From a virus (taxonomy: Duplodnaviria; Heunggongvirae; Uroviricota; Caudoviricetes): a DNA stretch of 46,405 nucleotides. The DNA is taken from the IMG/VR virus record IMGVR_UViG_2563366912_000002; one strand, written 5' to 3'. The notes under the pieces were generated by a model. The model was not told the DNA's origin and searched no databases. It saw only the letters and a list, made by a program, of their open reading frames with translations. Every line of letters begins with the position of its first letter. The stretch's first letter is position 1. The position numbers were made by a program, and so were the translations under genes. Below are positions 1 through 46,405 of this stretch, in pieces.

Positions 1-647
1 TTACGCCTTCTTTATATCCTCCATAATTCCAGAGTGGGACATATTTGGGACATTATCACCAAAAATGTCGTCTATTTTCCTCGCATGCTCTGTCAAATGA
101 TTAGGCGCAAGGTGAGCATACCTACGAACCATTTCTATGGACTCCCATCCGCCCATTTCCTGAAGCACTGATAATGGGACGCCTGACTGAATCAGCCAGC
201 TTGCCCAGGTGTGTCTGAGGTCATGGAAACGGAAATCTTCAATTCCTGCACGACGACAAGCTGATAGCCATGATGTCTTGCTGTCGATGCGCATCTTCCT
301 GACCGCAGGCGTTGATGTTCCATCTGCTCGCTTAGCCGCCTTGGTATGTACAAACACCCATTTGTGATGCTTGCCTATTTGATCACGCAACACTTTACAG
401 GCGGTATCGTTCAGCGCCACACCAATGGCGCGGTTTGATTTGCTCTCTTCTGGATTCACCCAGGCAACTCGTCGCTGCATGTCGATTTGTTGCCATTCCA
501 GATTTATGATGTTCGACTTTCTCAGACCAGTTGCCAGCGCAAACTTGACGACAGATTTCAGTGGTTCGGGGCACTCATCAATAAGGCGTTTTGCTTCCTC
601 CTTTTCCAGCCATCTGACTCGCTTGTTTCTGACCGCTGGTATCTTGA
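1..647 (-). pseudogene. int: Tyrosine integrase, C-terminal fragment (catalytic domain), separated from its N-terminal part by an IS insertion
   Basis: ORF 1..681 (-) ends ...[44 protein letters not shown], the R-H-R-Y tyrosine recombinase signature. Reading frame resumes integrase sequence (…[15 protein letters not shown]) only below ~647; codons 648..681 are IS-derived. Resembles Rac IntR from memory. Confidence 0.8.
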
Positions 648-3124
<2,477 letters not shown>

Positions 3125-40732: not shown

Positions 40733-43700
40733 GTGAATATGGCAGTAAAGATTTCAGGTGTACTGAAAGACGGTGCAGGTAAACCGGTACAGAACTGCAC
40801 AATCCAGCTGAAAGCAAAACGTAACAGCACCACGGTGGTGGTGAACACGGTGGCATCTGAAAATCCGGATGAAGCCGGGCGTTACAGCATGGACGTTGAG
40901 TACGGTCAGTACAGCGTTATTCTGTTGGTGGAAGGATTCCCGCCGTCACATGCCGGGACCATCACCGTGTATGAAGATTCCCGACCCGGTACGCTGAATG
41001 ATTTTCTCGGTGCCATGACGGAGGATGATGCCCGTCCGGAGGCACTGCGCCGCTTTGAACTGATGGTGGAAGAGGTGGCGCGTAACGCGTCCGCAGTGGC
41101 GCAGAACACAGCAGCCGCGAAGAAGTCAGCCAGCGATGCCGGCACATCAGCCCGTGAGGCGGCAACCCGTGCGACTGATGCTGCAGGCTCAGCACGTGCA
41201 GCCAGCACGTCAGCCGGACAGGCCGCGTCGTCGGCTCAGTCAGCGTCTTCCAGCGCAGGAACGGCATCAACAAAGGCCACTGAAGCATCAAAAAGTGCTG
41301 CCGCCGCAGAGTCTTCAAAAAGCGCGGCAGCCACCAGTGCCGGTGCAGCGAAAACGTCGGAAATGAATGCCGCAGCATCACAAAAATCTGCGGCCACATC
41401 TGCATCCACCGCGACCACGAAAGCGTCAGAAGCTGCCACCTCAGCCCGGGATGCGTCGGCTTCAAAAGTGGCGGCAAAATCATCAGAAACGAGCGCAGCC
41501 TCGAGCGCCGGCAGTGCAGCTTCCTCGGCAACGGCGGCAGGAAATTCCGCGAAGGCCGCAAAAACGTCTGAGACGAATGCGGATAACAGCGCACAGGCGG
41601 CAGCAGACTCACAAACTGCATCGGCAAATTCCGCGACAGCAGCCAAAAAATCAGAAACCAACGCGAAAAATAGTGAGTCAGCAGCAAAGGTCAGCGAAAC
41701 CAACGCTAAAGCGTCAGAGAACAAGGCGAAAGAATATCTCGACAAGGTCGGGGGACTCGTCAGCCCGATGACGCAATACGATTGGCCTGTTGTTACTGCT
41801 AGTGAGTCTCTTTACATCAAGATCGCGAAACTTTCCGATCCTGGAACCAGCAGAAGTCATGTAACGCTAATGGTTACTAACGCTGGTAACTACGGCTCCC
41901 CTTACGGAAACATTGACTTTATCGAGATCTCGGCGCGCGGTCTGCCTTCTTTGCTTAGTGCGGATAATGTTTCTCGTCATCTGAGTATACGCCGCTTAGG
42001 GTCAACCGGGCTGACCGATAACAACCAGATGCGTTACGGCCTGGTTAAAGGTGACGGCTTTATTGAGGTTTGGGCATTCCAGGGTGCGTTTATTAACGAC
42101 GCAAAGGTTGCGGTGCTGGCGCAGACAACACTAAACACAGAATTATACATTCCAGACGGATTTGTTAAGCAAACCGCCGCGCCTTCTGGATATATTGAAG
42201 GCAACGTTGTAAGGATTTACGACCAGGTAAACAAGCCGACTAAAGCAGATTTGGGTCTTTCTAATGCTATGCTTACAGGCGCTTTCGGTCTTGGCGGTAG
42301 CGGGATATCAACAAACGGCAAGATGAGCGATGTAGAGATCTTAAAAGCTCTGCGTGACAAAGGTGGTCATTTCTGGCGCGGTGATAAGCCGACCGGAAGC
42401 ACGGCGACCATTTATAGCCACGGTTCTGGTATATTCTCGCGGTGCGGCGATACGTGGTCAGCGATCAATATCGACTACTCAACCGCGAAGATTAAGATCT
42501 ATGCCGGCAACGATGCCCGGCTTAACAACGGGACTTTTAGCGTCAATGAGCTATACGGCTCGGCAAACAAGCCGTCGAAATCGGATGTTGGACTTGGCAA
42601 CGTAACGAACGATGCGCAGGTAAAAAAAACCGGCGATACAATGACCGGTGACTTGACAATCAAAAAAGGTACACCGTCAGTCTTCCTGCGGGCAGACAGT
42701 GGAGTCACCGCTTTGCGGTTTTATACTGGCGATAACACAGAGCGCGGCATAATCTATGCTGGTCCTAACACTGATTCGCTTGGCGAAGTTCGCATCAGGG
42801 CAAAGACAGCAGGGGGGACATCAGGAGGGGATCTTGTTGTTCGTCACGACGGGAGGGTTGAAGTCCGTGATCTCACAGTAGCGTATAAAATTAAAAGCAG
42901 AACGATTGAGATTGCAAATACCGACACTGACTCATCGGCAACTACGCTAAGCATCTATGGAGTACAGCACACGCCGTTGGTTTTAACGCGTTCTGGTTCT
43001 TCTGAAAATGTGTCCATTGGGTTTAAGTTAGACAACATGAACCCAAAGTATCTTGGAATTGATACTAATGGGGATCTGGCTTTTGGTGAGAGTCCTGATC
43101 AGAAACAAAACAGCAAATTGATCACGCAAGCGAAACTCGACAAGGGATTAACGATTGGTGGTCAACTGGCTTTCAAAGGTACGACAGCGTTTTCAGCCGT
43201 TGCTACGTTCAGTGCCGGGATAGCAGGAGCCATCGAGCCGGAAAACATTGACGGCCAGACGGTTAATCTTAACAACCTGACCATCATCAAGTCAGATGCC
43301 GGGGCAGTTAAATACTATATTTGTCCATCCTCTGCAGGTGGTGCAAATATCACCAACAAGCCTGACGGCGTAACAGGTAACTTTTTGCTCCGTGTTGAAT
43401 CGACTCGTAAGGTTAGGGATTCAGATTATGCGAACATGCAAACGCTGATTAACAGCGACACAAAACGTATATACGTTCGCTTTGTTGTTAATGGAAACTG
43501 GACAGCGTGGAGTCAGGTTGTTGTTTCCGGATGGAATCAGGATATAACTGTCAGGTCGTTAACCACATCTAGTCCGGTAAAATCTGGCGGAGGGCGAATT
43601 GATGTCCTTGGAAGCACGTCAGACTATAGCAAAATGGATTGCTTTGTACGTGGGTTTGATAGCACCGGTAATTCTCTCGCGTGGGCGTTGGGTTCATCAG

Positions 43701-44518
43701 CCGGCGTAAGTAAGATGCTGTCGCTAAAAAATTTCTTTAGCGGAGCTGAGATACTGTTAAATGGTAATGACGGCACGGTTCAACTCAAAACAGGTGCTGT
43801 TAACGGGGCTACAGCGCAGGCGCTCACTATCAACAGGAATGAGGTTAACTCAACTGTTGATTTAACCCTTACAAAGCAATCAGGGACTGGCAATCGTTTT
43901 GTTTTACAGAACTCAGGTAATGCAGAACTACCGTTTTCTGTCAGGGTGTGGGGTTCCAGTACTCGACAAAACGTTTTTGAGGTTGGCACGTCTGCTGCGT
44001 ATCTGTTTTATGCGCAAAAAACGTCAGCAGGCCAGTTGTTTGATGTAAATGGCGCTATTAATTGCACAACGCTGAATCAGTCATCAGACCGCGACCTTAA
44101 AGACGATATTCTCGTTATCAGCGACGCGACGAAAGCAATCCGTAAAATGAACGGATACACCTACACGCTCAGGGAAAACGGGATGCCTTATGCTGGCGTT
44201 ATTGCACAGGAAGTAATGGAGGCGATACCAGAAGCTGTGGGATCGTTTACTCATTATGGTGAAGAGTTGCAAGGTCCGACCGTTGACGGCAACGAGCTAC
44301 GCGAAGAAACGCGCTATCTTAATGTTGACTACGCCGCCGTGACGGGCTTACTTGTTCAGTTCGCCCGTGAAACAGATGATCGCGTTACCGCGCTGGAAGA
44401 GGAAAACACAACGCTACGTCAAAATCTGGCAACAGCAGACACCCGGATCAGCACTCTGGAAAATCAGGTAAGCGAACTGGTTGCACTTGTCCGGCAGTTA
44501 ACAGGAAGCGAACATTGA
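40733..44518 (+). CDS. stf: Side tail fibre protein (1261 aa): lambda Stf-like N-terminus, long Ala/Ser/Thr/Lys-rich repeat region, distal receptor-binding region, C-terminal intramolecular chaperone (S74-type) domain
   Basis: N-terminus MAVKISGVLKDGAGKPVQNCTIQLKAKRNSTTVVVNTVASENPDEAGRYSMDVEYGQYSVILLVEGFPP (Stf anchor); residues ~120-330 low-complexity repeats; C-terminal …DRDLKDDILVISDATKAIRKMNGYTYTLRENGMPYAGVIAQEV… plus coiled-coil tail; no separate tfa ORF follows. Confidence 0.85.
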   Translation: MNMAVKISGVLKDGAGKPVQNCTIQLKAKRNSTTVVVNTVASENPDEAGRYSMDVEYGQYSVILLVEGFPPSHAGTITVYEDSRPGTLNDFLGAMTEDDARPEALRRFELMVEEVARNASAVAQNTAAAKKSASDAGTSAREAATRATDAAGSARAASTSAGQAASSAQSASSSAGTASTKATEASKSAAAAESSKSAAATSAGAAKTSEMNAAASQKSAATSASTATTKASEAATSARDASASKVAAKSSETSAASSAGSAASSATAAGNSAKAAKTSETNADNSAQAAADSQTASANSATAAKKSETNAKNSESAAKVSETNAKASENKAKEYLDKVGGLVSPMTQYDWPVVTASESLYIKIAKLSDPGTSRSHVTLMVTNAGNYGSPYGNIDFIEISARGLPSLLSADNVSRHLSIRRLGSTGLTDNNQMRYGLVKGDGFIEVWAFQGAFINDAKVAVLAQTTLNTELYIPDGFVKQTAAPSGYIEGNVVRIYDQVNKPTKADLGLSNAMLTGAFGLGGSGISTNGKMSDVEILKALRDKGGHFWRGDKPTGSTATIYSHGSGIFSRCGDTWSAINIDYSTAKIKIYAGNDARLNNGTFSVNELYGSANKPSKSDVGLGNVTNDAQVKKTGDTMTGDLTIKKGTPSVFLRADSGVTALRFYTGDNTERGIIYAGPNTDSLGEVRIRAKTAGGTSGGDLVVRHDGRVEVRDLTVAYKIKSRTIEIANTDTDSSATTLSIYGVQHTPLVLTRSGSSENVSIGFKLDNMNPKYLGIDTNGDLAFGESPDQKQNSKLITQAKLDKGLTIGGQLAFKGTTAFSAVATFSAGIAGAIEPENIDGQTVNLNNLTIIKSDAGAVKYYICPSSAGGANITNKPDGVTGNFLLRVESTRKVRDSDYANMQTLINSDTKRIYVRFVVNGNWTAWSQVVVSGWNQDITVRSLTTSSPVKSGGGRIDVLGSTSDYSKMDCFVRGFDSTGNSLAWALGSSAGVSKMLSLKNFFSGAEILLNGNDGTVQLKTGAVNGATAQALTINRNEVNSTVDLTLTKQSGTGNRFVLQNSGNAELPFSVRVWGSSTRQNVFEVGTSAAYLFYAQKTSAGQLFDVNGAINCTTLNQSSDRDLKDDILVISDATKAIRKMNGYTYTLRENGMPYAGVIAQEVMEAIPEAVGSFTHYGEELQGPTVDGNELREETRYLNVDYAAVTGLLVQFARETDDRVTALEEENTTLRQNLATADTRISTLENQVSELVALVRQLTGSEH

Positions 44519-44844
44519 TATCCTTCAAGCTCTGAAGGAGGCTGTTCCCGGTACGTTCAGACTGTTGTTGAGCTGGAAATCGCAACGGAGGAAGAAAGAT
44601 CGTTGCTGGAGGCATGGAATAAATATCGGGTATTGTTGAATCGAGTTGATACATCAGTAGCTCTGGGTATGAAGCTGTTTGTAACTCATGTTACAGTAAC
44701 AGTCATTACTATCTCGAAGGTGCAAAATGTATATTGATTTGATATTTTATAAATTTACTTCGAATCTGGCACGTCAACTTTTGATTAAAGTAATATCAGT
44801 TTTCGGCGAAAAAAGGACCGTGTACATGAGACGATTTCATACAA

Positions 44845-44899
44845 TAATAACAAAAATATGAATATGCTCCCAATGCAATATATGTTTTGCATTGGGAGC
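44845..44899 (-). terminator. Rho-independent terminator downstream of the hydrolase gene
   Basis: Perfect 13-bp inverted repeat GCTCCCAATGCAA…TTGCATTGGGAGC (44866..44899); on the minus strand it is followed by ATATTCATATTTTTGTTATTATTG. Confidence 0.55.
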
Positions 44900-44920
44900 A
44901 AATAGCGGAATATTTTGAAA

Positions 44921-46405
44921 TTATTGTATTTCTGCTTCAGAATTTCCTGGGCAGTATATATTTTCTATTTTTTGTGGAGTGATCAGGTAATGTACAACTG
45001 CTTTATCTACACATAAATTAACTCCGGTGAGAGCTAATGTATGCCCATCACCATTTATTGTTAGTAACGGGCTGGAAAATTTCTCTGCCATCTTACGGGC
45101 ATTAATCCAGGGCGTTGTTGGGTCGTATTTGTGTGCTACAAACAGTAAACCAGAGGGCAGAACAGTATTTTTCAGGCGAGTTTTGTTCAGGTCGCTATGT
45201 ATTGGCCATAATTCACAAAAATCAGGTGAATCGGAACGTCCATTGTCAAAGTTAATAGCCGGGAAGGCATTCGCAAGAGCGTCTTTTCGGGATTTTCGCT
45301 CTTCTGGTGTTAATTGCTCATCCCCCTGATCTACACAGAGGATTACCCCCGAAGCATCGCTTGACTCTTCTGAGGCTATCGGAGCACTGAGCGCAGTTTC
45401 AATTTCATTACTGACAATCCCCTGAGAGAACTGGCGTATGGCAGTTGCAAGGGTTGGCCATGATGAACGCCATAGCAGAAGGTCTGTTGTTAATGATATG
45501 AGTTCATCTGAAGATATATTTTCTCCCTTACTGTCTAATAAAGGTTTGTGATGTAATTTTGATAATAGCTCATGGAACTGAGTTATTGCCTTATCTCTGT
45601 CTGAAGAAAGCGGGCAACTTTTTGTACGCGCACACCAGGATGCAAAGCGATCAAACGTTTCCTGATAACTCTGTGCCTGTTTGAGTTGCCATGTGAAGTT
45701 GTCCTCCAGGTCATCGATATCGACGACTCCATCAAGAACGATAGATCTTACGTTGTAGGGAAAACGTTCTGCATATAAGGCTGCAATTTGAGTTCCATAC
45801 GAATACGCCACGGCTGTCAGTTGTTTATCCCCCAAGGCTTGCCTAATACGATCAATATCGTATACAGCCTCGTTAGAGCCGATATGGCGAATGACTTCGG
45901 CTCCGGTATTATGGATACAGGCATTAATTTTATTTAATACTTGTTGCTTTTCGGTTATGTTTTCCTGAGTCTCTGTATCTGATTGCCGGCAGTTTATTGT
46001 CGGAGTGGACTGTCCGACGCCTCGAGGATCAAATCCAATAATATCCCATGACTCACGAAGATTTGTGACTGGCCAGTCAAAGTTAATATAAGGATTTATG
46101 CCTGGTAACCCGGGACCACCACTTATTATCAGGATACTTCCTTTATGCTTGCTTTTTGCCGGCAATTTTGTCAACGCTAGTTTGACTTGTGATTTTTTTT
46201 CATAAGAAGCATCTCCGCCTGTGTCTGTATATTTTAATGGAACAGACAAATAACCACATAGTAAGTCAGGAGACGGTTTTTCCTCACCAAACCAGTGGTT
46301 GAATTGACTGGCCATACAGGATTGCCACTGTATCTGCTGGGCAGATACGGTTACTGGTAGAAGTAACGTTAAAACAACTTTGAAATGAGTGATTATTTTT
46401 CGCAT
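44921..46405 (-). CDS. Secreted alpha/beta-hydrolase (S33 / tripeptidyl-aminopeptidase-like), 494 aa, with N-terminal signal peptide
   Basis: Signal peptide MRKIITHFKVVLTLLLPVTVSA; oxyanion-hole region IISGGPGLPG; nucleophile elbow AYSYGT (G-x-S-x-G); AT-rich, opposite strand to the tail genes; start codon is the last 3 nt of the window. Confidence 0.75.
   Translation of the reverse strand: MRKIITHFKVVLTLLLPVTVSAQQIQWQSCMASQFNHWFGEEKPSPDLLCGYLSVPLKYTDTGGDASYEKKSQVKLALTKLPAKSKHKGSILIISGGPGLPGINPYINFDWPVTNLRESWDIIGFDPRGVGQSTPTINCRQSDTETQENITEKQQVLNKINACIHNTGAEVIRHIGSNEAVYDIDRIRQALGDKQLTAVAYSYGTQIAALYAERFPYNVRSIVLDGVVDIDDLEDNFTWQLKQAQSYQETFDRFASWCARTKSCPLSSDRDKAITQFHELLSKLHHKPLLDSKGENISSDELISLTTDLLLWRSSWPTLATAIRQFSQGIVSNEIETALSAPIASEESSDASGVILCVDQGDEQLTPEERKSRKDALANAFPAINFDNGRSDSPDFCELWPIHSDLNKTRLKNTVLPSGLLFVAHKYDPTTPWINARKMAEKFSSPLLTINGDGHTLALTGVNLCVDKAVVHYLITPQKIENIYCPGNSEAEIQ

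Follow-up and report, generated by a model that had tools for sequence, protein, structure and literature searches.

The last gene of the virus record IMGVR_UViG_2563366912_000002, a 46,405-nucleotide stretch of caudoviral DNA to which we refer as the window, raises the question of what kind of enzyme it encodes, whether it belongs to a phage or to the flanking chromosome, and what it might do in a lysogen. A preliminary description had taken it for a secreted alpha/beta-hydrolase carried as cargo at the right end of a prophage. Our answer, which we consider likely, is that the gene is a cargo gene ('moron') of the phage b-region whose product is a Sec-exported serine hydrolase of the Hip1/TAP type, coupled to an omptin and probably a peptidase. 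The parts of this answer differ in firmness: we are highly confident of the identity of the hydrolase, of its status as cargo and of its linkage to omptin genes, we lean modestly towards a peptidase over an esterase, and we regard functional cooperation with the surface protease OmpT as doubtful.

An intact hydrolase gene closes the window

The open reading frame (ORF) of the hydrolase is intact, encodes 494 amino acids (aa) and occupies positions 44921-46405 of the minus strand, such that its ATG is the last triplet of the window. A frame of 494 codons with matches of this quality in the databases is evidently far beyond chance. Two Pfam domains score above their gathering thresholds, Abhydrolase_1 (E 3.1e-33) and Abhydrolase_4, the TAP-like C-terminus (PF08386; E 5.8e-16). 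The protein is identical to WP_001226378.1 of the genomes CE0026a and ZYB39, is 99.4% identical to ECs1662 of the O157 strain Sakai, and matches at 100% the cluster P0001, which comprises 4002 sequences. The features of the gene and its immediate surroundings are as follows.

44921-46405, minus strand: hydrolase coding sequence (ORF list, Pfam, Hip1 match, AlphaFold2 model, Foldseek)
46340-46405, minus strand: part encoding the predicted signal peptide, aa 1-22, with predicted cleavage VSA↓QQ (rule-based inspection of n, h and c regions, and hydropathy)
46109-46120, minus strand: GGPG, aa 96-99, predicted oxyanion-hole loop, in which Gly97 corresponds to Hip1 Gly110 (HMMER alignment)
45800-45802, minus strand: codon of Ser202, predicted nucleophile in AYSYGT (aligned with Ser228 in Hip1 GYSYGT)
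45122-45124, minus strand: codon of Asp428, predicted triad acid in YDPTTP (aligned with Asp463 in Hip1 HDPATP)
45041-45043, minus strand: codon of His455, predicted triad base in GDGHT (aligned with His490 in Hip1 GTQHT)
44862-44903, minus strand: hairpin resembling an intrinsic terminator, 18 bp downstream of the hydrolase stop codon (terminator scan, inverted-repeat search, RNA fold)
44567-44737, plus strand: remnant of a tail-fibre assembly gene (tfa), C-terminal 56 aa, tfaX-like (Caudo_TAP 9.3e-12)

The preliminary description was right about an alpha/beta-hydrolase gene of 494 aa, about its transcription opposite to the tail genes (the ORF lies on the strand opposite to the tail and late genes) and about its AT-rich composition, the GC content being 42.3% compared with 50.6% in the side tail fibre gene stf, 56.7% in J and 50.6% over the whole window. 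Of its interval 44520-46405, positions 44520-44920 lie outside the gene and hold the tfa remnant, an AT-rich spacer and the inverted repeat. The terminator that it assigned to the gene stands as a hairpin, with a perfect stem of 14 bp rather than the 13 bp given. Its arms (44862-44878 and 44887-44903) enclose a loop of 8 nt, and as minus-strand RNA it folds at -24.4 kcal/mol (z = -6.0 versus shuffled sequences), followed by the U-rich tail UAUUCAUAUUUUU.

The product resembles Hip1 in fold and predicted catalytic residues

Among solved structures, the closest to the hydrolase are those of Mycobacterium tuberculosis Hip1 (Rv2224c; 7sfm and 5ugq), with a full-length match at E 8e-52. Hip1, for which serine protease activity has been demonstrated, can also act as an esterase and has the Streptomyces tripeptidyl peptidases among its relatives (PMC4022732). 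We aligned 31 homologues that are 28-81% identical to the query (alignment A1), and the same homologues underlie an AlphaFold2 model with a predicted local distance difference test score (pLDDT) of 88.9 and a predicted template modelling score (pTM) of 0.89, in which helices extend over approximately aa 230-410. When the model was compared with solved structures by Foldseek, the top six matches were all Hip1 (template modelling score, TM, 0.73-0.81), followed by TnmK1/TnmK2, and all others stayed at or below a TM of 0.52. Families without a lid are among the latter, and the predicted fold matches that of Hip1, including a large lid of helices that interrupts the alpha/beta core.

Ser202, Asp428 and His455 are invariant in the 31-sequence alignment, stand in the canonical Ser-Asp-His order, and align with the catalytic triad of Hip1, Ser228/Asp463/His490 (PMC4022732), through the motif pairs AYSYGT/GYSYGT, YDPTTP/HDPATP and GDGHT/GTQHT (hydrolase/Hip1); the triad, on which the first reading of the gene depended, is intact on alignment, and the spacing of 27 residues between Asp and His is equal in the two proteins. 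Invariance extends to Gly97-Pro98-Gly99, to Ser202-Tyr203-Gly204-Thr205 and to Thr431, which, near the likewise invariant Asp428, is the equivalent of Hip1 Thr466. The oxyanion hole of Hip1 consists of Gly110 and Tyr229 (PMC13041806), to which Gly97 and Tyr203 correspond in the hydrolase. The motifs that had first drawn attention to the gene, GGPGLPG and AYSYGT, were found at aa 96 and aa 200. Taken together, the sequence marks the hydrolase as a Hip1/TAP-type alpha/beta serine hydrolase of MEROPS S33 type. Membership in the prolyl aminopeptidase family (TIGR01249) was rejected at 35.8 bits versus a cut-off of 259.75; NCBIfam models of prolyl aminopeptidases match the protein weakly, far below their cut-offs.

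A predicted export signal and conserved cysteines

The N-terminus of the hydrolase, MRKIITHFKVVLTLLLPVTVSA followed by QQ, has the parts of a signal peptide, as had been proposed: a basic n-region (MRK...), an 11-residue hydrophobic core (VVLTLLLPVTV, mean hydropathy 2.64) and a V-S-A cleavage motif (VSA↓QQ). The same rule-based check of the sequence found neither a lipobox nor a second transmembrane-like segment. The cleavage site is kept as VSA↓(Q/R)Q in diverged plasmid copies of 76-82% identity, and residues 1-20 have low pLDDT in the AlphaFold2 model. All 10 cysteines are invariant or nearly so in the 31 homologues and 9 of the 10 align with cysteines of Hip1. Together with the N-terminal signal, the 10 conserved cysteines point to folding in an oxidising compartment. 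The hydrolase is thus predicted to be exported across the inner membrane, to reside in the periplasm and to form disulfides; the earlier term 'secreted' holds for this predicted export and goes too far where it implies a location beyond the periplasm.

Hydrolase and ompT lie inside the attachment sites of a lambda-like prophage

By its gene content, the window is a lambda-like prophage of the argU/DLP12 site, whose genes run from half an integrase through recombination, replication, head and tail genes to J, lom and stf. The integrase gene is split: its catalytic half lies at 1-681 on the minus strand (Phage_integrase, 4.9e-47), an istA/istB element of the IS21 family, annotated as IS100 in matching genomes, occupies 734-2535 on the plus strand, and the remaining part of int lies beyond 2579, in the region 1-3124. 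Because the integrase is split by this insertion sequence (IS), the prophage is probably unable to excise. The arrangement is found, over at least 80% of the probe, in 9 of 5426 complete Escherichia coli genomes. A scan of the window for tRNA genes found none. Since the left edge of the window falls within int, exactly at the end of the integrase ORF, and its right edge at the hydrolase ATG, argU with attL, as well as ompT and attR, lie just outside it and were read from matching genomes.

In CE0026a, which is 100% identical to window positions 44400-46405, the gene order is stf, tfa remnant, hydrolase (minus strand), ompT (minus strand), envY, ybcH, nfrA and nfrB. The right attachment site, attR, consists of 47 bp of the argU 3' end and lies between ompT and envY, with its partner copy at argU beside intD; in ZYB39, whose integrase is IS-split in the same way, the repeat likewise lies between envY and ompT. 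With attR beyond ompT, hydrolase and ompT are therefore both inside the att-bounded prophage. Eleven deposited phage records encode the hydrolase at an identity of at least 99.4%, and represent nine distinct phages (ev243, 2G7b, Turner, PhiR26_1, PhiR30_1, PhiR49_1, PhiR49_1_star, PhiR29_1 and PhiR29_2). In ev243 and PhiR26_1 the 47-bp core (attP) adjoins int and ompT, and the hydrolase comes after ompT, giving the order int-attP-ompT-hydrolase. The annotation of Sakai likewise places ECs1662 ('hydrolase') and ECs1663 (ompT) within prophage Sp8, at its right end.

Judged by these positions, hydrolase and ompT are both cargo of the phage b-region. This settles in favour of the prophage the question, raised in the preliminary description, of whether the gene belongs to the flanking chromosome; its placement of the gene as cargo at the right end also stands, except that the hydrolase is not the last cargo gene, ompT following it outside the window. 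A prophage boundary called at the right edge of the window omits this one cargo gene. A virion-associated or lysis role for the hydrolase was rejected on the grounds of the Sec signal peptide, the location in the b-region, the strand opposite to the late genes and the absence of the gene from related prophages.

The left edge of the variable cargo slot is marked by the tfa remnant, which is annotated as an incomplete tfa in CE0026a and to which the homology of K-12 tfaX ends at about window position 44631 (L001 12232). The neighbouring side tail fibre (1261 aa, window 40733-44518) carries a Peptidase_S74 intramolecular-chaperone domain near its end (aa 1118-1169); with only 56 aa of tfa remaining, this domain is consistent with a fibre that has become independent of a separate chaperone for its assembly. 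At the right end of Sp8 in O157:H7 (L008 and L015), the stretch between stf/tfa and the hydrolase holds a manganese catalase, two ferritin-like proteins and a small general-stress protein, with a ybcY-type methyltransferase and an ISEc8 insertion as further cargo, and the b-region is there a stack of morons.

Omptin and hydrolase genes recur as a pair

The pairing of an omptin with a hydrolase is found again in diverged form: ompP and a hydrolase on IncF plasmids, with a 92-bp spacer; a third omptin and a hydrolase in a plasmid-like context; and a pair on a ColV-type plasmid, near iroN. Between modules, the identities of omptin and hydrolase move in step (70.8/76.1, 79.7/81.7, 91.5/95.1 and 99.1/99.4%), which fits inheritance as one unit since before the split of OmpT and OmpP. 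The ratio of nonsynonymous to synonymous substitution rates (dN/dS) between diverged copies is 0.12-0.22 for the hydrolase, indicating purifying selection on this gene, and 0.06-0.18 for the omptin.

Occurrence in E. coli and alternative occupants of the slot

With presence defined as at least 80% coverage, the hydrolase is found in 1230 of the 5426 genomes (~23%), at an identity of at least 99% in 1213. A 701-bp junction probe, composed of the hydrolase 5' end, the 186-bp spacer and the ompT 3' end, reached at least 80% coverage in 1234 genomes and gave any match in 3083 (57%), most of them over the ompT part only. Since the junction count of 1234 compares with 1230 for the hydrolase itself, practically every copy lies directly downstream of ompT, and essentially always at a distance of 186 bp.

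Three contexts are found downstream of ompT, namely the hydrolase, appY (in K-12) and ybcY (in strain Z135-3). In K-12, homology to the hydrolase-ompT locus breaks off 4 bp after the ompT stop codon. The ybcY context has been reported for CFT073 and other uropathogenic E. coli (UPEC), as a 'low-OmpT-activity' context (PMC6854850). Compared with ev243 (L002), Z135-3 (L010 4092-6586) has a clean 1,969-bp deletion that removes the tfa remnant and the hydrolase, keeps 161 bp of the spacer and has its junction at a TTGAA(A/T)ATA microhomology. Uneven presence among related prophages, a point proposed for checking from the start, is seen in the appY of K-12 prophage DLP12 and in the deletion of CFT073-type strains. 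The hydrolase appears to be dispensable, given its presence or absence among otherwise related prophages.

The same three ompT contexts were described by Desloges et al. 2019, who reported that in isolate cystitis 6 ompT is followed after 186 bp by ymcE, a putative cold shock gene (PMC6854850). Since the hydrolase lies at exactly this distance, the label ymcE is probably an error. A plasmid from that study, pCys-11, carries a 95%-identical hydrolase beside an ompT-like ORF (L017 3866-4813; 89.9% identity to OmpT).

Transcription across the omptin-hydrolase junction

A hairpin, CCCCGG...CCGGGG, lies directly after the omptin stop codon and ahead of the hydrolase in each of the four module types. 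Its folding energy is -18.5 to -19.3 kcal/mol for three of these and -10.3 for the fourth, and its U-tail is only moderately U-rich; it may serve either as a terminator or as an attenuator controlling the ratio of omptin to hydrolase. K-12 lacks this hairpin because its homology extends no further than 4 bp past the ompT stop codon. The omptin-hydrolase spacers that contain it are as follows.

L001, 14007-14192
L016, 4834-4925
L021, 4813-5000
L009, 8486-8669

Approximately 45 nt separate the hairpin from a good Shine-Dalgarno sequence in the ompP version. By eye, the spacer offers poor -35/-10 candidates and one PhoP half-site that is not conserved in the ompP version, from which we draw no claim. 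In a microarray study of Sakai, ECs1662 falls by 2.53 log2 and ompT by 2.72 log2 around entry into stationary phase; the two entries, given for successive time points, belong to one expression cluster (PMC2241611). By these data, transcripts of the hydrolase are made in the lysogen and follow the pattern of ompT.

Discussion

We propose that the hydrolase serves as a lysogenic-conversion gene of lambda-like phages, which integrate at argU and in whose b-region it lies. Its transcription in the lysogen would run counter to that of the tail genes, jointly with ompT just upstream or in parallel to it, and would end at the 44862-44903 hairpin. The precursor would be cleaved after Ala22, and the 52.5-kDa mature protein would fold in the periplasm with up to five disulfides. 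There, beneath a large helical lid like that of Hip1, it would hydrolyse peptide bonds, or possibly ester bonds, by means of Ser202/His455/Asp428 and an oxyanion hole of Gly97 and Tyr203. Inheritance as one unit with an omptin suggests, as the most likely role, a second, periplasmic step of envelope proteolysis that would complement OmpT at the surface, and possible substrates would be peptide fragments, or envelope or host proteins, already cut by OmpT.

Several observations weigh against this proposal or parts of it. No omptin lies within 4 kb of homologues of 52-55% identity (in Salmonella, Budvicia and a Logan contig), nor within 4 kb at 80 genome loci in Serratia, Pseudomonas and Actinobacteria, in a scan dominated by actinomycetes. 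Homologues of at most 55% identity without an omptin neighbour imply that the family does not need an omptin to function, and the pairing is, as the compared loci have it, a feature of the E. coli-type clade and not of the whole family. The hairpin after ompT (-18.5 kcal/mol) may terminate most ompT transcripts, and a scan for sigma-70 promoters found no site in the 186-bp spacer, with regional sites below shuffle expectation; from the lack of a spacer promoter, the hairpin and the ~45-nt gap of the ompP version we infer read-through or attenuated co-transcription with the omptin. By motif mapping, three pocket residues differ from those of Hip1 (Glu113 to Leu100, Arg232 to Gln206 and Lys469 to Ile434), and the substrate specificity of Hip1 is therefore not transferable to the hydrolase. 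Hip1 was first named a carboxylesterase, hence an ester may be the substrate. Lastly, the signal peptide was judged by rules alone, and we found no biochemical or genetic data on the hydrolase in the searchable literature.

The substrate question gives rise to the best-surviving alternative, which keeps the fold and the location and makes the enzyme a carboxylesterase, lipase or lactonase that acts on envelope or host lipids, small esters or lactones. An alpha/beta fold with a Ser-Asp-His triad is common to esterases, Hip1 itself hydrolyses p-nitrophenyl butyrate and is deposited as 'Carboxylesterase A', and two phage records name the gene 'putative lactone hydrolase'. That name, however, is automatic and without backing, whereas the closest characterised relatives (Hip1, and the Streptomyces tripeptidyl peptidases TPP A/B/C cited in PMC4022732) are peptidases, and the hydrolase has the TAP-like C-terminal domain as well as GGPG, Y-S-Y-G-T and the Thr466 equivalent as in Hip1. 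On balance, we think this alternative quite unlikely.

We give still less credence to the idea that the hydrolase, with or without OmpT, is a defence or superinfection-exclusion factor that destroys periplasmic components of incoming phages, which strikes us as very improbable. The b-region is a usual place of exclusion and defence genes, copies are found on conjugative plasmids too, and the PADLOC-DB candidate model PDLC01094, 'C3a206 TAP-like protein', matches the full-length hydrolase at E 5.9e-57. The model is, however, a candidate and its match is no closer than that of Hip1, while OmpT has no PADLOC hit and the neighbours, ompT and the tfa remnant, include no defence-type partner genes. 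Least probable of all, and largely refuted, is a chromosomal or inert passenger decaying beside a defective prophage: an IS21-family element interrupts the window's integrase, degraded prophages such as the IS-flanked Sp8 of Sakai harbour many of the copies, and the gene has been lost from K-12-type and CFT073-type strains, yet the ORF is intact at an identity of at least 99% in 1213 genomes, dN/dS is 0.12-0.22 with invariant catalytic residues, complete phage genomes carry the gene inside the att-bounded unit, and the Sakai copy is transcribed (PMC2241611).

A Sec-exported, omptin-coupled moron of the Hip1/TAP type, probably a peptidase, is the explanation that we retain. The ORF is no new discovery, as it is annotated in thousands of genomes under generic names ('alpha/beta hydrolase') and has a PHROGs entry, phrog_20134, of 'unknown function'. 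Our searches for the pairing, for the phage names and for Z1930 found no literature that characterises the hydrolase or notes its pairing with omptins. Enzyme family and kind of genomic setting are both known, the hydrolase itself being uncharacterised, and the conserved omptin-hydrolase module is the modestly interesting part.

Much work has gone into OmpT, which contributes to antimicrobial-peptide resistance in enterohaemorrhagic E. coli (EHEC), UPEC and avian pathogenic E. coli (APEC) and is unwelcome in protein production. The hydrolase, a homologue of a tuberculosis virulence protease, follows ompT in ~40% (1234/3083) of the complete E. coli genomes that gave an ompT match, O157:H7, O111 and O121 among them. 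If the two enzymes cooperate, the phenotypes of ompT mutants and strain differences in 'OmpT activity' may need to be read again; if they do not, the hydrolase is one more moron. A bolder view, which we hold to be unlikely, is that an omptin and a Hip1-like hydrolase constitute an old mobile two-enzyme module of envelope proteolysis, spread through E. coli by phages and plasmids, in which the hydrolase would be an overlooked contributor to OmpT/OmpP phenotypes (antimicrobial-peptide resistance, and virulence of EHEC and extraintestinal pathogenic E. coli), comparable to the role of Hip1 in M. tuberculosis. The locus also documents the transfer of ompT and its partner from strain to strain by live temperate phages.

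Relation to known systems

Hip1, represented by PDB entries 5UGQ, 7SFM and 9MD7 and alternatively named 'carboxylesterase A', is a full-length homologue at ~27% identity in the Foldseek alignments, with a TM of 0.75-0.81 to the predicted fold, that shares the triad, the oxyanion hole of GGPG and Tyr, the Thr466 equivalent, nine aligned cysteines, the large helical lid and export to the envelope, which for the hydrolase is predicted. The two differ in that the hydrolase has a Gram-negative host, is carried by phages and plasmids and has a plain signal peptide of the signal peptidase I type, and in that cleavage of GroEL2 is specific to mycobacteria. The Streptomyces tripeptidyl peptidases TPP A/B/C, relatives cited for Hip1, are peptidases (PMC4022732); this group of MEROPS S33, with the tripeptidyl aminopeptidase Tap and SlpD/SlpE of Streptomyces lividans, has the same Pfam architecture with PF08386, a likeness drawn from architecture and citation only. 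TnmK1/TnmK2 of tiancimycin biosynthesis (PDB 8E18 and 8G5T) are the next-best structural neighbours (TM ~0.74), but they are only 18-21% identical and are actinomycete tailoring enzymes of secondary metabolism, with nothing alike in the context of the hydrolase. Prolyl aminopeptidase (PDB 1QTR and 1AZW) belongs to the same superfamily and shares the nucleophile-elbow region, without the large lid and the TAP-like C-terminus.

Among genetic settings, a possible precedent that we considered is the arlABC omptin island PI-6, the middle gene of which is HlyF-like and is not known to encode an alpha/beta hydrolase. In the cryptic prophage DLP12 of K-12, the slot between the tfaX remnant and ompT is filled by appY, which is likewise foreign cargo of AT-rich composition (31.7% GC), but it encodes an unrelated AraC-type regulator, lies on the opposite strand and replaces the hydrolase cassette from 4 bp after the ompT stop codon. 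The closest counterparts are the plasmid hydrolases that follow ompP and other omptins (on IncF plasmids, e.g. NZ_CP027256.1; WP_001263869.1), which are 76-82% identical, have the same position and orientation, and share with the phage copy the hairpin after the omptin and the VSA cleavage site; they differ in being plasmid-borne, and in the ompP version the spacer is shorter, at 92 bp, and the Shine-Dalgarno sequence stronger.

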